62,215 bases of DNA from Gammaproteobacteria bacterium (GTDB taxonomy: Bacteria; Pseudomonadota; Gammaproteobacteria; Steroidobacterales; Steroidobacteraceae), in the NCBI GenBank assembly GCA_031424095.1, contig JANPGU010000181.1, forward strand, positions 1 through 62,215, given 5' to 3'. The stretch's first letter is position 1. Every line of letters starts with the position of its first letter. The position numbers and the translations under genes are program-made. Below, piece after piece: positions 35,453 through 62,215 of this stretch. The notes beneath the pieces were generated by a model. It made no database searches. It had not been told where the DNA came from and saw only the letters and a program-made list of their open reading frames with translations.

Positions 35453-36460
35453 TTACTTCCAGCGGGACGCGGTGATCGGGAACAGCTCCAGCTCACCCTT
35501 GGCGTAGCGCTGCTCGAGGCCCGGCGTGCCGTTCTCGAGCACCATCAGCATCGAACGCTTCGGTGCAAACCCCTGGTGACGGATGTCTGCCGGCATCGCA
35601 CAGACGTCGCCGGATTTCATCACGATGCGGCCGCGCGGGTTGCCGGTGCTCTTGTCCTGGATGTTCCAGTGGATCTCATCGCTCAACTGGATGAACCACT
35701 CATTGCGATCGTTGCCGTGGATCACCGGCAGCATGTGCTCTTCGCTGGTCACGCAGCAGATGCACGCGCCGGTGATCGACGTGAACGACGGGTTCCACGT
35801 GATGTCCGCGCGGGCGATGTGGTCGTACAGATTGAAGGCATGGATCTGTCCTTCGAATCCGGCCTCCGGCTCGATGACCGGCTGGTCGACCTTCACGTCG
35901 GCGAAGGCGCGATTTACCGGGTGACCGCTCGCGTCCGAACGCGGTGTGACGTCGCCTGGCAGGCCCATCATGCGACGGGCGGGATCGAAGCCGCGCAGCA
36001 GCGGGCCCTTGGCTTCCTTGGTCTTCGCACCCAGCGGCGAGCCGGTTTCCATCGGTGCACGCAGCGGGTCGTAGCCCTCGTTGATCCAGTTCACCGAAAT
36101 GGTTTCGAACGCCAGCCGCACGTCGTCGGTGTTGAAGGTTTCGAGGAAGTCGACCTTGGTGTCGCGGTGACCCTTGCTGTACGTGCCGGCGAAGATGTCG
36201 ACCGTGCCGTAGTGGTTCTGCGTACCGAAGACATCGTCGAAGAAGATCCAGCCGTAGAAGAATCCCCAGCCGATGTCGCGCACCATCGCGCGCAGGAAGC
36301 GATCCACCTCGATCGTGTGCATGCCCTTTGGCCAGCGCACGTGGACGAAGTAGGCGTCACGCTCGAACGTGAAACTGCCAAACTGGAATTTCTTGTAGCC
36401 CAGGACCGGATCCGGTGCGGAAGCGATGACCTGGACTTTCTCGATGAGTGCAGCGTTCAT
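35453..36460 (-). CDS. Large (catalytic, cupin) subunit of a two-subunit hydroquinone 1,2-dioxygenase-type enzyme (HapD/PnpD-like)
   Basis: 335 aa from ATG 36460 (RBS GAAGGAAACATC). A C-terminal cupin carries H-G-N-D-R-N-E, with a His 41 residues after the Glu (ADIRHQG). As I recall, this spacing matches the Fe ligands of PnpD. A 163-aa partner lies upstream and an ALDH downstream. Confidence 0.55.
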   Translation of the reverse strand: MNAALIEKVQVIASAPDPVLGYKKFQFGSFTFERDAYFVHVRWPKGMHTIEVDRFLRAMVRDIGWGFFYGWIFFDDVFGTQNHYGTVDIFAGTYSKGHRDTKVDFLETFNTDDVRLAFETISVNWINEGYDPLRAPMETGSPLGAKTKEAKGPLLRGFDPARRMMGLPGDVTPRSDASGHPVNRAFADVKVDQPVIEPEAGFEGQIHAFNLYDHIARADITWNPSFTSITGACICCVTSEEHMLPVIHGNDRNEWFIQLSDEIHWNIQDKSTGNPRGRIVMKSGDVCAMPADIRHQGFAPKRSMLMVLENGTPGLEQRYAKGELELFPITASRWK

Positions 36461-36474
36461 GATGTTTCCTTCGC

Positions 36475-36966
36475 TTATTTCAGCACGCAGATGTCGGACC
36501 ACTTCTCGACGCTTTCGGGGCCGGCCGAGGTCTGGATGAGTGTCACGGATGCATTGGCGGCTTTCAGCTGATAGGCGCTGCCGGTGGGTAGCAGCACCTG
36601 ATGGCCGCGCCGCGCAATGACGCGTCCCATGCGCTTGCCCTTCGGGTCGGCCTTCAGTCGCGCGGCGCCGGCCTTGTGCGTGGGCTTCTCTGCGTCGGTG
36701 AGCTGGAAGAACGTGAATTCGATTTCGCCGTCCATCACGGTGGCAAACTCGTCATGCGGCGCGGTGTACCAGGGCGACGTGCCTTCGGCTCGCACCGCCT
36801 CGGCGGCGTATTCGAGATTCGATGCCACCATCACCCGTTCATAGGGTTTGCTCTTGGAGCAGACTTCGAAAATGTTGGAAAAGGCGTAGTGCTTGAGATC
36901 GTCGTTGAGCTCGATCGTGCCTTTGTCATATGACGCCAGCGACGCCAATTTGGTCTTGAAGCTCAT
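36475..36966 (-). CDS. Small subunit of the two-subunit hydroquinone dioxygenase-type enzyme (HapC/PnpC-like)
   Basis: 163 aa, immediately upstream of the large subunit (14-nt gap). The size and pairing match the ~18 kDa plus ~38 kDa architecture. The sequence itself is recognised only weakly. Confidence 0.5.
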   Translation of the reverse strand: MSFKTKLASLASYDKGTIELNDDLKHYAFSNIFEVCSKSKPYERVMVASNLEYAAEAVRAEGTSPWYTAPHDEFATVMDGEIEFTFFQLTDAEKPTHKAGAARLKADPKGKRMGRVIARRGHQVLLPTGSAYQLKAANASVTLIQTSAGPESVEKWSDICVLK

Positions 36967-37148
36967 GCCATGCCCCCCCTGTTCGCAAGAATGATGCTGC
37001 CAGAGGCCGCGTGAGCGCCTCTGTTACTGGACTGCCCGCAGCTCATCGGCTGATTCGACCATTGATGATAGGGAATGGCTACGGGCTAATCAAGGCGCTC
37101 TACGTTGCTGAAATCGTTGGGAAATTCGCCTGACGGAGCTCGCTGCAG

Positions 37149-49865: not shown

Positions 49866-51182
49866 ATGGTGGCTAAGCGCGCTCTGGTGGTGGACGATTC
49901 CAAGTCGGCCCGTGCCTTTCTGGCGAAGCTGCTCGAAGAGCAGCAGGTCGAGGTCGATGCGGCAGAGACCGCCGAGCAGGCCATCGACTACCTCACCCAC
50001 AACCGTCCCGATGTGATCTTCATGGATCACCTCATGCCGGGCATGGACGGCTTCCAGGCTGTGCAGGCCATCAAGAGCAATCCGCGCACGGCCATGATTC
50101 CGATCCTCATGTACACCTCGCAGGAAGGCGAACTGTATCTGGGGCAGGCGCGCGCGCTGGGCGCCGTGGGTGTGTTGCCGAAAACGGTAGCACCCACCGA
50201 TGTGCGCACGGTGCTGCAGCAGCTGCATCTGATGGCGCAGCCCGAGCCCGACACAGTAGCCGCGCAGCAGGACGTGATGGAGGCTGCCGTCGCCGCGGCG
50301 TATGCCGCCGATACCGTGTCGACGCAGATGCCCTCCGGGCTCGCCGTGGATGAACTGCTGAAAGATGAAGTCGCGGCCCTGCGCCTCCATTTTAGTGAAG
50401 CGCTCGACGCGCACCGCGAGAGCGTGGTGAGGGATGTGCGCAGCATGATGCTGGAGGTGCTGCCGGTCGGGCCTGAAGCGCCGCCCACCGCGCCGGAGGA
50501 GCCGCGGCACAGTCCGATTCCCTGGCTGCTGGCGCTGGCGGCCAGCGTGGCCGCGGCGGTGCTGGGGACGCTGCTGTGGCAGAACCAGCAGCAGACCCTG
50601 TCGCTGCGCAACGAATTGGCAGACAGCAAGTCGACGCTGGCCATGCTGACGGCAAGACTGGTGCCGACACCGCAGCCGGCTGCCGACGCGTCGGCAGCGG
50701 ACTCCGCCGATGCGCCTTCGCTGGTGGTGAAGGTGCCCTTTGGCGAAGCGCCGCTGGCTGGCACGCGCATCGAACAGCTGCGCGATTTCGTGGCCAAGGT
50801 TGCCGTGCTGGGCCAGAAGGGCACGGTGGAAGTGCGCCGTTACGCGGGCCGTTTCTGCCTTTCCGGCAGCGGCGCGGAAGGTTATTCGCTGGCTCAGGGC
50901 GCGATGCCCTACATCAAATGCGATCTGGTGGCTGATGCCACCGACGCCGAGCTTGGCAACACGGCGCCGGAATCGGTGGCCTTTGCCAATGCGCTGGCGG
51001 AACTGCGCCGTGAGCACGCGACACTGCTGAGCATCGACGTGGGTGCCGGCCGCGCGGAGGGAACGGGCACCCCCTATCCGGAGGTAGGCGGCACTCCGCC
51101 ACGCGTGCCCAGTGCCGCTGAATGGAATACCGTCGCCGAGGGCAACAACCGGGTGGAGATGCGCTGGCGCCCGTCCTCGTGA
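49866..51182 (+). CDS. Response-regulator receiver protein with a TM helix and a C-terminal OmpA-like domain
   Basis: CheY-like REC domain (VVDDSKSARAFL...DVIFMDHLMPGMDG...LPK). TM helix PIPWLLALAASVAAAVLGTLLW. The C-terminal domain ends in NNRVEMRW, resembling the OmpA/MotB NRRVE motif. Confidence 0.7.
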   Translation: MVAKRALVVDDSKSARAFLAKLLEEQQVEVDAAETAEQAIDYLTHNRPDVIFMDHLMPGMDGFQAVQAIKSNPRTAMIPILMYTSQEGELYLGQARALGAVGVLPKTVAPTDVRTVLQQLHLMAQPEPDTVAAQQDVMEAAVAAAYAADTVSTQMPSGLAVDELLKDEVAALRLHFSEALDAHRESVVRDVRSMMLEVLPVGPEAPPTAPEEPRHSPIPWLLALAASVAAAVLGTLLWQNQQQTLSLRNELADSKSTLAMLTARLVPTPQPAADASAADSADAPSLVVKVPFGEAPLAGTRIEQLRDFVAKVAVLGQKGTVEVRRYAGRFCLSGSGAEGYSLAQGAMPYIKCDLVADATDAELGNTAPESVAFANALAELRREHATLLSIDVGAGRAEGTGTPYPEVGGTPPRVPSAAEWNTVAEGNNRVEMRWRPSS

Positions 51183-52156
51183 CCGTGTTCAGGCCGCGGT
51201 GGCCGTGGGGCAACCGCCATGTGCAGTCGATCCTTCCCAGCCTCATGCCGCGCCGGCGTTTGCGGCGACGGGCGGCGGCCTATCTCGCCGCCAGCCGCGA
51301 ACTGCTGCTGGACTGCGGCGACGGCGTGCGACTGCAGGCCTTTCATGCGCGACCTTCCCGACCCTGCGGAACGGCGGCCATCCTGCTGCATGGCTGGGAG
51401 GGCAGCGCTGACTCGTATTACATGATCTCGCTCGGGCACAGCCTGTTTGCGGCTGGCGTGGAAGTGGTACGCCTGAACCTGCGCGACCACGGTGACACGC
51501 ATCAACTCAACCAAGGCATTTTCCATTCCTGCCGTTTGCCCGAGGTCTGCGGTGCGGTGGCGGCGATTGGCGCGCAGCTGTCGGTGGCGAAGCCGTGGCT
51601 GGTCGGCTTCTCGCTGGGCGGCAATTTCATGCTGCGTGTGGCGGCCAGCGATGATGCGCGTGTGCCACCACTGGCAGGCGTGGTGGCCGTGTCGCCGGTG
51701 CTGCATCCCGACAGCGCCATGCGAGCGATGGAAGACGGCTGGCAGGTTTACCAGCGATATTTCGTCGGCAAGTGGGGACGCTCGCTGCGACGCAAGCGCT
51801 CGCTGTGGTCGCCGGACCTCGTGGATGAATCGATCTTCCGGCTCGGCGACCTGCGCCGCATGACGGCGGCGATGGTGGCGCGGCATACTACCTTTCCCGC
51901 CATCGACGATTATCTGGATGGTTACGCCATCACCGGCAAGCGGCTGGCGACGCTGCATGCGCCAGCGGTGATTCTTGCGTCTCGCGATGACCCTATCATT
52001 CCGGCAGAGGATCTCGCGCGTCTGGCGCAGCATCCGCAGCTGCGCGTGGTGACCACCGAGCGCGGCGGGCACATGGGCTTCATGGTGAGCCCCTTCGCTA
52101 CCTCGTGGGTCAACGAGTTCGTCGCGCGTGAGCTGGGCCTGGCTGCAAGCACCTAG
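51179..52156 (+). CDS. Alpha/beta hydrolase (YheT-type)
   Basis: ILLHGWEGSADSYY, the nucleophile elbow GFSLGGN, and a C-terminal GGHMGF. GTG 51179 overlaps the upstream stop (GTGA). Confidence 0.75.
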   Translation: MTVFRPRWPWGNRHVQSILPSLMPRRRLRRRAAAYLAASRELLLDCGDGVRLQAFHARPSRPCGTAAILLHGWEGSADSYYMISLGHSLFAAGVEVVRLNLRDHGDTHQLNQGIFHSCRLPEVCGAVAAIGAQLSVAKPWLVGFSLGGNFMLRVAASDDARVPPLAGVVAVSPVLHPDSAMRAMEDGWQVYQRYFVGKWGRSLRRKRSLWSPDLVDESIFRLGDLRRMTAAMVARHTTFPAIDDYLDGYAITGKRLATLHAPAVILASRDDPIIPAEDLARLAQHPQLRVVTTERGGHMGFMVSPFATSWVNEFVARELGLAAST

Positions 52157-52551
52157 TCGGCGTTGCGTTTCTCTTCGAACTGCACCACCGGCGCACCGCT
52201 GGTGATCTGCATTTCGCCTTCGATCACTGCGCCACGTGCGATGGCCAGTGTGCGGGCCGTGACATGACCCTTGATGACGGCGCCCGAGCCGACCTCGAGC
52301 TGCTCCGTGACTTCGATGCTGCCGGTGAGCGCCCCGGCAATGACGGCGGAACGCGCCCGCACCTGGCCTTCCCAGTGCGCGCCGCGCCCGATGGAAAGTG
52401 TGCCGCCGATGTCGCCATCGCCAACCACATTGCCGCTGAGCATGACGGCGCCGGGCGCGATGATGTCGCCGCGGAAGCTGACGCCGGTGCCGATGACAGT
52501 GGGTGGGCCGCCGCGGCGGTCGGTCAGTCTGCGGTTGGGGGCGTCGGTCAT
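52153..52551 (-). CDS. Bactofilin (polymer-forming cytoskeletal protein)
   Basis: Repetitive beta-helix pattern (G.V.G.I....L.I...A...G.V) across 132 aa, typical of DUF583/bactofilin. It shares a palindromic CTAG stop with the convergent hydrolase gene. Confidence 0.85.
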   Translation of the reverse strand: MTDAPNRRLTDRRGGPPTVIGTGVSFRGDIIAPGAVMLSGNVVGDGDIGGTLSIGRGAHWEGQVRARSAVIAGALTGSIEVTEQLEVGSGAVIKGHVTARTLAIARGAVIEGEMQITSGAPVVQFEEKRNAD

Positions 52552-52639
52552 GCGTGCATCTTGTCAGCCAGGCTGAGCCGGACACCGTGAAATATGCCCG
52601 TATTCCACAAGCTCGTGGTTTGCCCGATCGTGGCGCGGA

Positions 52640-52656
52640 TGCACCGCCCGGGTGCG
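52640..52656 (+). promoter_or_regulatory. NtrC-like enhancer dyad TGCACC-N5-GGTGCG
   Basis: Matches the NtrC consensus TGCACC-N5-GGTGCA at 11 of 12 positions. It is centred about 108 bp upstream of the predicted sigma54 start site. Confidence 0.35.
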
Positions 52657-52729
52657 CGCCCAGGCTGCGCGGCCGTTGCCAGTAAGGCCTGCGAGTGCCA
52701 TTGGAACCGATTGCGGCCCTAGCCGGAGT

Positions 52730-52745
52730 TGGCACAGCACTTGCT
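52730..52745 (+). promoter_or_regulatory. Sigma54 (-24/-12) promoter
   Basis: TGGCACAGCACTTGCT fits TGGCAC-N5-TTGCW with exact GG-to-GC spacing. It is the only such match I found in the window. The predicted +1 is near 52756. Confidence 0.55.
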
Positions 52746-52755
52746 TTATATACAT

Positions 52756-52858
52756 AGGGACCGTGACAAGCGGTCCCACGCGAAGTGCCACTACCCCCCC
52801 CGTTGGTCTTCGCTTACCTTAAGCGCCGCAAAGGTTTACCTCTGCGGCGCCTTTTTTT
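52756..52858 (+). ncRNA. Candidate sigma54-dependent small RNA (about 100 nt)
   Basis: Bounded by the sigma54 promoter and a strong terminator, with no ATG and no SD inside. Three predicted hairpins: GGGACCG/CGGTCCC (52757-52777); GCGAAG/CTTCGC (52780-52813) with a C8 run in its loop (52794-52801); and the terminator. Confidence 0.45.
52823..52858 (+). terminator. Rho-independent terminator
   Basis: GCGCCGCA-aaggtttacctc-TGCGGCGC followed by C and T7. On the minus strand the T-tract is poor, so it is oriented for plus-strand transcription. Confidence 0.7.
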
Positions 52859-53174
52859 GCCCGCTTGTCGCGGATCAGCCGACCCTTCGACGCTCGGTTG
52901 CCACGGGACGATTCTCGGTGCGGGCGTCGAAGCCCAGTTCGCGCAGCACGTTGTGCAGGTCCTGGCGGGAGTGGAAGTATTCCTCCTGAATTTCCAGACC
53001 TTCGCCTGACACAGAAATCACTTCAGTTGCAGGAGCGGGCCATTTGCCATTCATATCGGATCTGACCCACCGTTGCGAACATCCGAACGCATTCTGCGGC
53101 GGTTCCGGAACCTTACCCGCTTCCGCGCGCTGAACCGGCATGGGTTTACTTAATTCCGCGCGAAATTTGCGCCG

Positions 53175-54818
53175 CTACCGGGCACCCCGGAGTTGATCGA
53201 TGAGATCGAGGCTGTTGGCCGGCAGTGCATCGCCACGCCAGGCGACATGCTGGTCCGGCCGGCCCAGCACCAGCTTGTGACGATAGACGGACGGCAGCAC
53301 CGCGACATCGAGGTCGAGCAGCGCCAGCGGCACGCCGCGCGCGGCCGCTGCGGCCAGCATGGGAGTCACGTCGACACTCGCATCGAAGCGCAACAGCGTA
53401 TAGCCAGGACCCAGTGCATCGTAGAGTGACCGACCGTCGTCCAGCCAGAGGTGGGGCGTGCGGCAGCCGGGCACCGTGGATGCAGTGTAGTCGTACATGG
53501 TGTAGGCCGGCTGCTGCTCACCGTCATACGCGATCAGAGGTGACTGGTCGTAGTAATAGCCGTAGTTGAGTCCCGCGCAGGCGAACTGCTGCACGTTGAG
53601 CGCGTAGGCCGCCTGGCCGACCGCTGTCCGCGCCGCCGCGCCAGCTTGTGAGTCCTGTTCCAGTTCCGCGGGCAGCGTCGTGCGCTCGCGGATCGCGCCG
53701 TGCGCATGCTGCATGGCCAAGCGTGACACCTGCTCGGTGATGGGGTGCCGCTCGCGCTCGTGTGCGTCGAGGATGCCTGGTGCGCCCCAGCCCTGAATGC
53801 GTGCGGCGAGCTGCCAGGACAGATTCATGGCATCGGCGATACCGGCGTTCATGCCATAGCCGGCGTACGGCACCCACAGGTGCGACGCATCGCCGCTGAT
53901 GAAGACGCGTCGGTCACGAAAGCGGTCTGCCACCAGCCGGCGGCCGATCCAGTCCTCCCTGGTCAGCAGTTCGTACCGGAATTCCGGACCAACCCCCAGC
54001 AGCAGCCGGATGCAGCGATCGCGATCCACCGTGTCGAAGTCCTCGTGCGGCAGCAGGTAGTTATGCAGCAGCCAGGACTCGCGACCGTCGATGGCGACAA
54101 GATTTCCCTGTCGCTCGGGGTTGTAGAGGTAACTCATCCAGGCGTCAGGTTTCGTGATCCGCGCCAGCAGCTCCGGAGCGCGGAAACAAGTGGACTGCAC
54201 GCGCTGGATCACTTCATCGCCGGTGAGCTTCGCGCCGATGCGCTTGCGGACCATCGAGCGGCCGCCATCGCAGCCCACCAGGTAGTCGGAGCGGACTTCG
54301 AAACGCGTGCCCGTCGCAAGGTCGACGACCGTCGTGGTCACGCCTGCCTCGTCCTGCTGGAAGTCCTCGACCTGTGCCTGATTCAGGATGCGGATGCCCG
54401 GCGTCTGCACCGCGCGGCGGAACAAGATGGGCTCCAGGTAGATCTGGTTGATGCGATGTGCCGGCTCCGGCGTCGGCCACCAGCAATCCGGCCCGTCGCG
54501 GCGTGCATAGCGGTCGGTGCGGCAGGGGATCGGGATGCGCGCCAGTTCAAAGCCGGTGGCGCGCGTGCGGAACACGACATCATTCGGGTAGTCATCCGGC
54601 AGTCCGGCTGCGCGTACCTCGGCAACAAAACCCAGCCGACGAAAGGTCTCCATGGTTCGCGAGGAGACATGGTTGCACTTCACGCTGGGCAGTTCGCCGG
54701 CCGGGCGCAGTTCCATCACGCTGACTTCGACGCCGCGCCAGGCCAGGTCCATCGCCAGGCACAGGCCCACGGGGCCGCCGCCCACGATTGCGACCTTGGT
54801 CGCATGTCTTGCAGTCAT
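53175..54818 (-). CDS. FAD-dependent aromatic-ring monooxygenase (PheA/TfdB-like)
   Basis: VAIVGGGPVGLCLAMDLAWRG is the GxGxxG motif. RVFISGDASHLWVPYAGYGMNAGIADAMNL is the DG/GD FAD motif. Length 547 aa. I trimmed the start to ATG 54818. Confidence 0.8.
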   Translation of the reverse strand: MTARHATKVAIVGGGPVGLCLAMDLAWRGVEVSVMELRPAGELPSVKCNHVSSRTMETFRRLGFVAEVRAAGLPDDYPNDVVFRTRATGFELARIPIPCRTDRYARRDGPDCWWPTPEPAHRINQIYLEPILFRRAVQTPGIRILNQAQVEDFQQDEAGVTTTVVDLATGTRFEVRSDYLVGCDGGRSMVRKRIGAKLTGDEVIQRVQSTCFRAPELLARITKPDAWMSYLYNPERQGNLVAIDGRESWLLHNYLLPHEDFDTVDRDRCIRLLLGVGPEFRYELLTREDWIGRRLVADRFRDRRVFISGDASHLWVPYAGYGMNAGIADAMNLSWQLAARIQGWGAPGILDAHERERHPITEQVSRLAMQHAHGAIRERTTLPAELEQDSQAGAAARTAVGQAAYALNVQQFACAGLNYGYYYDQSPLIAYDGEQQPAYTMYDYTASTVPGCRTPHLWLDDGRSLYDALGPGYTLLRFDASVDVTPMLAAAAARGVPLALLDLDVAVLPSVYRHKLVLGRPDQHVAWRGDALPANSLDLIDQLRGAR

Positions 54819-54831
54819 GAATCCGGCTTTC

Positions 54832-55452
54832 CTAGAGACCGTTTCCCGTCTGCAGATATTCCAGCTCTTCGCGGCTGCTGCGGCGGGCCAGTGGCAGATT
54901 CCGATGCGGGAAGCGGCCAAAGCGCCGCACGATGCGCCGGTGCTGTTCGGCGAACGCCTGGCTGCTGGCAAACACCTCGCGTTGCGCTGCTGGCACAACG
55001 GCCAGCCGGCGGGTGTAGGCCGCCACGGATTCATCCTGGACTTCCGGCGATTCCGCGTGCTGCAGCGGCAGATAGAAGAACAGGCGTTCGACCGGAGCCA
55101 GCGCAGCGTCGGCGCCGGTCTGCAGGCCTTCGAGCGTCAGCGTCATGGCTTTGCGGTCACGGGAATAGGCCAGCGCGCGGCCGCGGAAGGCGTGGCGTGG
55201 AAACTGGTCCAGCAGCAGGATCAGCGCCAGCAAACGGTGGGGACTGGCGCTCCAGCGGTCCAGATCACCCAGCGCGGCGGCTTCCATGAGGCCGCCGAAG
55301 CGCTGTACCAGCTCGGCGTCGCGCTCCGCGACGATGTCGGGCGGGTCGTCGCTGCCGAACCAGAGTTGCAGCCGGTCGGGGAGGTGGGCAGGAGCCAGCG
55401 GGTCAGGGCCGAACCAGTAGTCCAGGACTTCCTGCGCCCGCCGCTCCGTCAC
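54832..55452 (-). CDS. DUF924 family protein
   Basis: VLDYWFGP, LLLDQFPRHAF and IVRRFGRFPHRN are the DUF924 hallmarks. The start is probably GTG 55452. Confidence 0.8.
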   Translation of the reverse strand: MTERRAQEVLDYWFGPDPLAPAHLPDRLQLWFGSDDPPDIVAERDAELVQRFGGLMEAAALGDLDRWSASPHRLLALILLLDQFPRHAFRGRALAYSRDRKAMTLTLEGLQTGADAALAPVERLFFYLPLQHAESPEVQDESVAAYTRRLAVVPAAQREVFASSQAFAEQHRRIVRRFGRFPHRNLPLARRSSREELEYLQTGNGL

Positions 55453-55456
55453 GCCA

Positions 55457-55882
55457 CTATTCGCACAGGCTCTCGAGCATCCCCTGCGCCACCGGCGAGA
55501 GTCGCTTGCGGGCCAGTTCGCGGGCCTTGGGAGCATCCATGAAATGCTCCAGCGGGCCGGAAACCATCAGGCTGCGCACATGCGGATGCTTGGTCGAAAG
55601 GCGCGCCATCTTGTTCAGGACCGTGAAACCACGGTTGATCTTCTGCCGCGGGGTGCGCTTGTGCTCGATGGAGCGGGCCAGGTACTGGCCGAATCGGCTG
55701 AAGAGGAAATAGTCGTCGTCGCCAACCTGAAAACGGGCTTCGGCGAAGAAATCGGGGAAATTCTTTTCTAAATACTGAGTCACGCTCAGCAAGCGGGGAG
55801 CTTGCACGGCCGTTGCAGCCGTCGATTTGATCTGAGTATTCATCGTTTGGTTCAAGCACCTCCAAAGGGTCCTGACAACCAT
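55457..55882 (-). CDS. Hypothetical protein
   Basis: Protein-like composition in a lower-GC stretch, first gene of the minus-strand operon. An alternative start is ATG 55843. I recognise no family. Confidence 0.4.
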   Translation of the reverse strand: MVVRTLWRCLNQTMNTQIKSTAATAVQAPRLLSVTQYLEKNFPDFFAEARFQVGDDDYFLFSRFGQYLARSIEHKRTPRQKINRGFTVLNKMARLSTKHPHVRSLMVSGPLEHFMDAPKARELARKRLSPVAQGMLESLCE

Positions 55883-56069
55883 TTCTGGGCGTCACGGGCG
55901 ACCACACCCCGCAACGCGCGCGGACAATAGGGCCAATGACGCCGTGATGCAATAGGCGCAATGCGCGAATTCATGAATTGCCGCAACAGCCCGCAACTCG
56001 CGCGCCGCGTCGCGGCCGCGCGCGCTGCGGAAGTCGAGCGGGAGGAAGCGTGCAATCCCTTGCTGCTGC

Positions 56070-56078
56070 GGGGGGGGG
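56070..56078. repeat. G9 homopolymer in the long gltB upstream region
   Basis: gcgggggggggat, read directly from the sequence. It lies in the ~600-bp non-coding stretch 55883-56491. Confidence 0.9.
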
Positions 56079-56491
56079 ATGGGGACTGCTGCCTGTGTCA
56101 GTGCGGTGACCTCGCGGGGTGGCGAACGGCGGGATGCCGGAATGCTCGCCATGGCGGCGCAGGAGGCTCCCGGGGCGCAGGGCTGGGTTCTGGGCGGAGC
56201 GGCATTGCTGTTTGCCTGGTACCTGGCGATGCGGTCCCGATTCCGCGCATAACCTCATAATTCGCAAAGGCCCGGTTTAACACGGGTGTAGCCCCTTACC
56301 GTCGCCCCCGCGAATTGATCTCTGCGCAGGCAGCGGTATCATTCGCCAGAGACTGTCTCCGTTGGCCGCATCAGGCAGGCCATTTCCGAGACGCAATCGT
56401 TTGACCATCAGGTCGTCGTGGGTTCGCCCGGGACGGAGGCATTGTCGCCTCTGCAAAGCCCAGGCACGTCGACCAGGAGCCATATAAGAAG

Positions 56492-62215
<5,724 letters not shown>

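Follow-up and report, generated by a model that had tools for sequence, protein, structure and literature searches.

The stretch of DNA analysed here, referred to below as the window, covers 62,215 nt (62 kb) of a contig assigned to the Steroidobacteraceae. Between a bactofilin gene (52153-52551, minus strand) and a gene for an FAD monooxygenase of the aromatic-ring hydroxylase type (53175-55034, minus strand), the plus strand carries a dyad, a sigma-54 promoter, and a predicted small RNA of ~103 nt at 52756-52858, with gltB starting farther downstream at 56492 on the same strand. The +1 of the RNA was inferred as the position 12 nt 3' of the -12 GC of the promoter, and its end was set at the end of the U-tract. 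An initial annotation had proposed a sigma-54-dependent small RNA at this position, and its coordinates for the dyad, promoter, C-run, and terminator are all correct in the sequence of 52600-52860. Its view that the enclosed ~103 nt form two hairpins plus a terminator also stands, the predicted fold having an energy of -48.2 kcal/mol and a z-score of -5.6 against shuffled sequences (0/200 shuffles folded equally well).

Relatives of the locus and conserved gene order

A protein search with the bactofilin led to five loci in species-representative genomes, all of them MAGs labelled Steroidobacteraceae or Gammaproteobacteria. The whole intergenic unit, consisting of the dyad, the promoter, both hairpins, and the terminator, can be aligned across these five loci, and each has an exact TGGCAC-N5-TTGCW 5' of the bactofilin gene and divergent from it. 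Metagenome contigs were scanned with a 17-nt piece of the invariant block described below as the query, with no promoter asked for, and 89 stretches were returned. Eighteen contained the RNA hairpins and terminator, and every one of these also had TGGCA[CT]-N5-TTGC at -65 to -70 from the core; the other 71 matched by chance or in coding sequence, with one protein-coding setting coming up many times, and all of them lacked this promoter pattern. The family therefore stands at 24 copies (the window, 5 genome loci, and 18 metagenome copies) with 22 distinct sequences. A covariance model built from the RNAalifold alignment of these 22 sequences finds one copy per locus with scores of 68-121 bits, and no second copy in the window or any of 94 loci, which rejects a Qrr-like multiplicity of extra RNA copies. 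Conservation and covariation in related genomes had been put forward initially as a check, with loss of the promoter and terminator in relatives counting against the proposal; the opposite was found, since both elements are kept in 24/24 copies, as are the hairpins, and the first hairpin covaries.

The gene order around the RNA is conserved as well. A response regulator gene and an alpha/beta hydrolase gene on the plus strand are followed by bactofilin on the minus strand, the RNA on the plus strand, an optional DUF924 gene and geneX (141 aa, with a weak DUF7674 match) on the minus strand, and gltB on the plus strand. gltB lies 0.6-3.6 kb 3' of the RNA and on the same strand in every locus that reaches far enough. 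The linkage to gltBD, initially noted at 3.6 kb in the window, is thus a family trait and is tighter in most relatives, where one small gene alone separates the RNA from gltB. The convergent gene ends within ~1-30 nt of the terminator in every locus, and its identity differs by locus, being orf88/monooxygenase, DUF924, or geneX. A neighbour that is always opposed and yet variable indicates that the RNA is an independent gene and not a leader.

Several other features of the neighbourhood were noted. The segment holding an 88-aa ORF and the FAD aromatic-ring hydroxylase (52875-55034, minus strand) lies between the RNA and DUF924 in the window and locus L001 only, and DUF924 or geneX abuts the terminator in the other loci, so that this segment looks like a recent insertion. 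The response regulator (49866-51182, plus strand, 438 aa) has a receiver domain followed by ~320 residues without a Pfam match, and most loci of the family retain it, together with the alpha/beta hydrolase, in synteny 5' of bactofilin. An imperfect dyad, GTGAAATA-N6-TATTCCAC (52587-52608), is found 35-55 nt 5' of the bactofilin start and is partly kept in relatives (CCGTGAAA.A.G.CC); it may be a bactofilin promoter or operator. The sequence CATCTTG just 5' of the annotated bactofilin start is invariant.

geneX itself (55457-55882, minus strand) is preceded by a leader of ~75 nt (55883-55965, minus strand) that is nearly invariant in all 19 family loci reaching it, behind a sigma-70-like TTGCAT-N17-TAATGT. 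RNAalifold predicts a long hairpin in this leader (GCGUUGCGGGG...CCCGUGACGC) with two compensatory G-C to A-U changes, and a second hairpin (GGUUGUCAGGACC) directly 5' of a GGAGG Shine-Dalgarno sequence. An Rfam search of the leader at E <= 5 gave no credible match, only one SNORA76 chance match at E = 3.1, and the leader may be an undescribed cis-regulatory RNA between the small RNA and gltB. The geneX-gltB spacer (55962-56491) is ~1.2 kb longer in L004 and L005, where the extra sequence presumably represents ECF sigma/anti-sigma-like genes. Part of the window's spacer, including a G9 run at 56070-56078, can be aligned to apparent coding sequence in these two loci, and on this alignment the spacer is a relic.

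The sigma-54 promoter and its upstream dyad

The promoter, TGGCACAGCACTTGCT at 52730-52745 (plus strand), reads TGGCAC-N5-TTGCT and has the GG at -24 and the GC at -12 at the fixed spacing of sigma-54 promoters. The claim that such a site is unique in 62 kb holds for the exact consensus: TGGCAC-N5-TTGCW has this sole match in the window, against 0.13 expected from dinucleotide shuffles, 12/100 of which contained at least one match. The pattern TGCACC-N5-GGTGCR of the dyad likewise has a single exact match in the window (0.04 expected), and the two exact sites lie 90 bp apart, both 5' of the structured, terminated unit. When 1-2 mismatches were allowed, neither the sigma-54 nor the dyad pattern rose above chance in the window, and for this reason the argument from the window itself depends solely on the exact sites and on their lying next to each other. 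The sole match to the sigma-54 consensus with one mismatch, TTGCACGGCCGTTGCA (55802-55817, plus strand), falls within the coding region of geneX, which is read from the other strand, and is at the level expected by chance.

The weight of the case comes from conservation in 23 other loci and not from these within-window statistics. TGGCA[CT]-N5-TTGC is found in 24/24 family copies, 65-70 nt 5' of the core. The five bases between the -24 and -12 elements are free to vary, with 13 different spacers, and the elements themselves are constant, as would be expected if the sigma-54 promoter is functional.

The dyad TGCACC-N5-GGTGCG (TGCACCGCCCGGGTGCG, 52640-52656) is centred ~108 bp 5' of the predicted +1. 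It had been described as matching an NtrC site at 11/12 positions, and both this count over the consensus half-sites and the distance to the start were confirmed. The published NtrC consensus is given as TGCACCAnnnTGGTGCA (PMC8743547), to which TGCACCGCCCGGGTGCG conforms, and as TGCACC(A/T)4TGGTGCA (PMC4987338). Enough upstream sequence is available for 21 loci, of which 16 have GCAC-N7-GTGCG exactly and another 3 differ from it at one position; in the divergent L024/L050 group the dyad is degenerate. L024, L050, and L020, the last with too short an upstream sequence for the comparison, are the copies that have diverged furthest.

The dyad-to-TGGCAC distance is variable, with four classes (76/77, 86-89, 98/99, and 121 bp) separated by steps of ~11 bp. 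The mean resultant length of the spacing is 0.86-0.93 at periods of 10.5-11.2 bp, and after collapsing the loci to the four classes, phasing remains at p = 0.05 for a 10.5-bp period and p = 0.001 for 11.0 bp. Steps of this size mean that helical phase is kept, and phase kept despite varying distance is characteristic of an enhancer that contacts promoter-bound polymerase by looping. In its conservation and spacing the dyad thus has the properties of an upstream enhancer, which is expected about 80-150 bp from the start with dependence on the face of the helix.

Abutting the dyad is a further conserved motif, TGCCCGATCGTGGCGCG (52621-52637), which reads TGCCCGA-N4-TGG(C/A)GCG in relatives; in most loci of the family its spacing on the 5' side of the dyad does not change. 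Its window form, TGCCCGA-N4-TGGCGCG, matches the NtrC half-sites at 8/12 positions. This motif may be a second, weaker site for an enhancer-binding protein, or an element of the divergent bactofilin promoter.

The identity of the activator is suggested by the motif, by its position near -108, which is also where the enteric glnAp2 enhancer lies, and by the genomic context. On these grounds NtrC is the reasonably likely activator. Transcription of the RNA would start from the sigma-54 promoter at 52730-52745, activated from the enhancer ~108 bp upstream (the dyad at 52640-52656, possibly with the weaker site at 52621-52637) by an enhancer-binding protein of the NtrC type, with NtrC itself the likeliest one. 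With NtrC as the activator, the RNA would be made under nitrogen limitation.

Alternatively, the same sigma-54-dependent RNA could be controlled by another enhancer-binding protein that recognizes GCAC-N7-GTGC and responds to a signal other than nitrogen status. The link to NtrC is the DNA motif alone, and the motif departs from the enteric consensus in several ways: the outer dyad positions vary (CGCAC in L054, L056, and L057), a 3' G replaces the consensus A throughout, and the central spacer is G+C-rich where the enteric one is A/T-rich. A search for bEBP genes by GAFTGA and related motifs found none in the 62-kb window or the family loci, so that no activator is encoded nearby. Against this, TGCAC(C/T) and GGTGC are NtrC half-sites, the position near -108 is that of the classic glnAp2 arrangement, and the conserved linkage to gltB suits nitrogen control. 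The sites of other well-known enhancer-binding proteins are also unlike the dyad (TGT-N10-ACA for NifA, TGTC-N10-GACA for GlrR, TTGCA-N3-TGCAA for LuxO, and GT-N7-AC for NorR). We therefore consider control by a different protein unlikely, and NtrC is retained as the likelier activator.

Structure of the RNA and its conserved block

RNAalifold recovered three helices from the 22 sequences. In the model-guided alignment standard pairs occupy 98% of cells, compared with 38-50% when the partners are slid by 1-3 columns; 7 pairs have changes on both sides, and 0/500 shuffles reached any of five measures. The covariation is concentrated in hairpin 1 (52757-52777, plus strand), whose stem GGGACCG / CGGTCCC encloses the conserved loop GACAAG. 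Here 6/6 pairs have changed on both sides, with AU, GC, and CG types represented, and 0/500 shuffles matched this covariation.

Hairpin 2 (52780-52813, plus strand) is constrained differently. Its loop of ~13 nt holds the C-run, and the proposed seed, CCCCCCGTTGGTCTTCGC, starts in this loop and continues along the 3' arm of the stem. The initial annotation had described a run of eight C in the second hairpin. Such a run is indeed present at 52794-52801, but its length is not fixed in the family, being 6, 7, 8, or 9 in different copies, and the invariant block (CCCCCCGUUGGUCUUCGC) exceeds the C-run in length. All six copies found by synteny share CCCCCCGTTGGTCTTCGC unchanged, and they are the only test of its invariance since the search pattern imposed the core on the 18 metagenome copies; one of the six, L004, keeps it although the remainder of its region is only ~73% identical. 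The centroid structure leaves the loop unpaired, and the 5' side of the stem has only G-U/A-U changes. An invariant 3' side whose pairing partner drifts suggests a constraint beyond self-pairing.

The terminator occupies 52823-52858 (plus strand), with a G+C-rich stem at 52823-52850 and T7 at 52852-52858. It is present in all copies, nearly invariant, and paired in 100% of cells, and its U-tract is on the plus strand only. A simple terminator scan missed it, apparently because of a loop limit of 8, and it is clear on folding; the description of it as a strong intrinsic terminator was therefore well founded. The U-tail and an A/U-rich linker before the terminator hint at Hfq dependence.

Candidate targets and proposed mode of action

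The RNA consists of a 5' hairpin, the second hairpin, and the intrinsic terminator with its U-tail, with the invariant block C6-9-GUUGGUCUUCGC carried in the second hairpin's loop and continuing into the 3' side of its stem. In the mechanism we propose, the C-rich loop would initiate pairing with G-rich Shine-Dalgarno regions of mRNAs from elsewhere in the genome, and pairing there would block translation. The most economical reading of the invariant block suggests a seed for G-rich ribosome-binding sites, as in the sX13 loops, and we lean slightly towards Shine-Dalgarno pairing through this C-rich seed as the mode of action.

The search for targets covered the 62-kb window and short loci. It yielded one candidate complementary to the conserved seed, the translation-initiation region (TIR) of a PnpC-like gene (36966-36990, minus strand), which reads GAAC-A-GGGGGGG-N6-ATG and is tentatively listed for the complementarity of its G-run. 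Its Shine-Dalgarno region is the only other run of at least 7 G in the window outside the gene relic. The PnpC-like gene (36475-36966, minus strand; 163 aa, without a Pfam match) precedes a gene for a PnpD_N hydroquinone-dioxygenase large subunit; the pair spans 35453-36966 (minus strand), and an aldehyde dehydrogenase follows in relatives. The PnpC-like small subunit is very well conserved; it has 2085 homologues, and the best 120 of the 2085 are 73-96% identical.

When the TIRs of ten PnpC-like orthologues were compared, five read (CC)AA(C/U)-G5-6 and five were of the ordinary AGGGAG type. The first five are CCAACGGGGGG in L098, CCAAUGGGGGG in L097, UAACGGGGG in L102 and L105, and GAACGGGGG in L104; all complement CCCCC(C)GUU(GG) of the RNA, and that of L098 is a perfect 11-nt complement of CCCCCCGUUGG. 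Duplex z-scores were -3.5 for L098, -2.1 for L097, and -1.9 for L102, and the window's own pair of RNA and PnpC-like TIR scored -0.6, which is not significant. The PnpC-like operon is thus a doubtful target. More speculative still is a scenario in which a Steroidobacteraceae-specific nitrogen small RNA would couple NtrC to hydroquinone ring cleavage through pairing of the C-run/GUU with the AAC-G5-7 Shine-Dalgarno region of this operon, as part of a nitrogen-control island with gltBD and the leader of the DUF7674-like gene.

Other sites were considered and set aside. Pairing with the neighbouring genes, namely gltB (-150 to +45), bactofilin (-100 to +45), and the geneX leader, was no better than with dinucleotide shuffles. 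The G9 run at 56070-56078, 5' of gltB, was rejected because it falls in the ECF sigma/anti-sigma relic that is intact in L004/L005, and is not conserved. Within the PnpC-like gene, AAGACCAA at codons 4-6 complements the 3' stem side of the RNA, and was rejected as a coding constraint, since FKTK is kept even in orthologues lacking the AAC-G-run Shine-Dalgarno sequence. The 11-mer GCGAAGACCAA (36018-36028), in the gene after the PnpC-like one, complements the same side of the stem at about the frequency expected by chance (an estimated ~0.4 matches). A scan of the window by duplex energy alone gave 946 sites below -17 kcal/mol, which is uninformative in a genome of 64% G+C.

A real RNA could also act without pairing to Shine-Dalgarno regions, by titrating a protein or by cis/antisense action on the 3' end of its convergent neighbour. 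This would fit the tentative standing of the one candidate target, and the hairpin 1 loop GACAAG is conserved as well. No more than ~30 nt ever separate the end of the convergent gene from the terminator, and if its mRNA read through the hairpin, the resulting 3' end would be a perfect complement of the RNA. The convergent gene is not the same one in all loci, however, while the RNA core is invariant, and an extended, unpaired, invariant stretch rich in C is what a pairing seed usually looks like, as in sX13 (PMC3771888). Candidate TIRs complementary to the seed also exist. Action by either of these routes is accordingly judged quite unlikely, and Shine-Dalgarno pairing remains the preferred reading.

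Standing of the gene and comparison with known small RNAs

The proposal that the region is not an RNA gene at all, and instead serves at the DNA level to regulate the divergent bactofilin gene, or to terminate convergent genes, has its basis in the position between the bactofilin 5' end and the 3' end of another gene, and in the conservation of the bactofilin-proximal element at 52587-52608. It is very improbable, in that the compensatory changes of hairpin 1 fit RNA structure and would be unexpected for a protein-binding DNA site, the terminator U-tract is confined to the plus strand, and the sigma-54 elements keep a fixed distance from the structured, terminated unit in 24/24 copies. A very small protein, such as the 19-codon GTG frame ending at TAA that is present at 52764-52823, is already refuted, because the C-run varies by 1-3 nt among copies and breaks any reading frame, the GTG is not conserved (GAGACAAG in most copies), and the transcript has, as was first noted, neither an ATG nor a Shine-Dalgarno sequence.

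What is left is a discrete non-coding unit with its own promoter, an intrinsic terminator, and a conserved structure. An independently transcribed, sigma-54-dependent non-coding RNA gene is therefore real with high confidence on the comparative evidence. The comparison with relatives shows the gene and its structure, the sigma-54 promoter, the helically phased enhancer dyad, and the terminator. We infer that NtrC is the activator, that the signal is nitrogen limitation, and that the RNA acts by base pairing, and the same goes for any particular target. For the complete chain, in which NtrC would activate a sigma-54 small RNA under nitrogen limitation and the RNA would pair through its C-rich loop to Shine-Dalgarno regions, we put the probability at roughly 0.6.

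The initial impression that the sequence belongs to no known family was upheld, as Rfam at gathering thresholds gave no match across the whole window. A permissive scan of 52500-53200 returned only terminator-driven noise. The best sub-threshold plus-strand match in this 700-nt search was to MmgR/suhB (RF00519), with 18.7 bits against a gathering threshold of 41 and E = 0.28; it covers the second hairpin and the terminator, and most of its score comes from the terminator, so that the RNA cannot be counted as a member. MmgR is a C-rich, nitrogen-influenced small RNA, and as an alphaproteobacterial RNA it differs from the one here in lineage and promoter type.

The common architecture of an enhancer, a -24/-12 promoter, a short structured RNA, and a terminator is shared with the Qrr/LuxO, GlmY-GlmZ/GlrR, CrcZ/CbrB, and NfiR systems, which have other enhancer motifs, sequences, and targets and no Rfam match here. 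NcS25 of Burkholderia, which came up in the literature search, was rejected as a sigma-54 analogue because it is not sigma-54-dependent. The sX13 RNA of Xanthomonas has three C-rich loops, unlike the RNA described here, which has one long C6-9 run followed by the invariant GUUGGUCUUCGC; the two share no Rfam match, and we know of no report that sX13 depends on sigma-54. The C-rich loop motifs of sX13 are described together with G-rich mRNA motifs (PMC3771888), and the same principle of action would apply to the RNA here.

The closest functional analogue is NrsZ of Pseudomonas, whose synthesis in nitrogen-limited cells is switched on by NtrB/C and RpoN and whose functional motif sits in a hairpin loop (PMC4253122). 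Like the RNA here, NrsZ is a stand-alone small RNA behind TGGCAC-N5-TTGCW with its motif in a loop. NrsZ, encoded 3' of ntrC, is built of repeated stem-loop modules with a ACAGGCAG loop; it undergoes processing and acts as an activator of rhlA (PMC4253122). The RNA here has neither sequence nor Rfam similarity to it: there is no covariance match, no repeated ACAGGCAG stem-loop, and no adjacent ntrC. It has instead a single module with a C-rich loop, beside bactofilin and gltB, in a different order, the Steroidobacterales.

Taken together, the locus very likely holds a gene, not described before, for a small regulatory RNA of soil-dwelling Steroidobacteraceae, with a sigma-54 promoter and an NtrC-type enhancer. 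The RNA family is new and the kind of regulator is already known, so that understanding of this regulator class is unchanged. The family is supported by 22 distinct sequences and a calibrated covariance model, and the locus offers a regulatory RNA of well-defined extent, together with predictions for its signal and its activator and a defined seed. It would add one more lineage to the short list of small RNAs known or proposed to depend on both NtrC and sigma-54, of which NrsZ is the clearest case. The Steroidobacteraceae are common in soil and the rhizosphere and have hardly been studied genetically, and our literature search turned up no publication about small RNAs from Steroidobacter or its relatives. 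With gltBD next door, this RNA is a possible entry to how these bacteria balance nitrogen assimilation against carbon catabolism.
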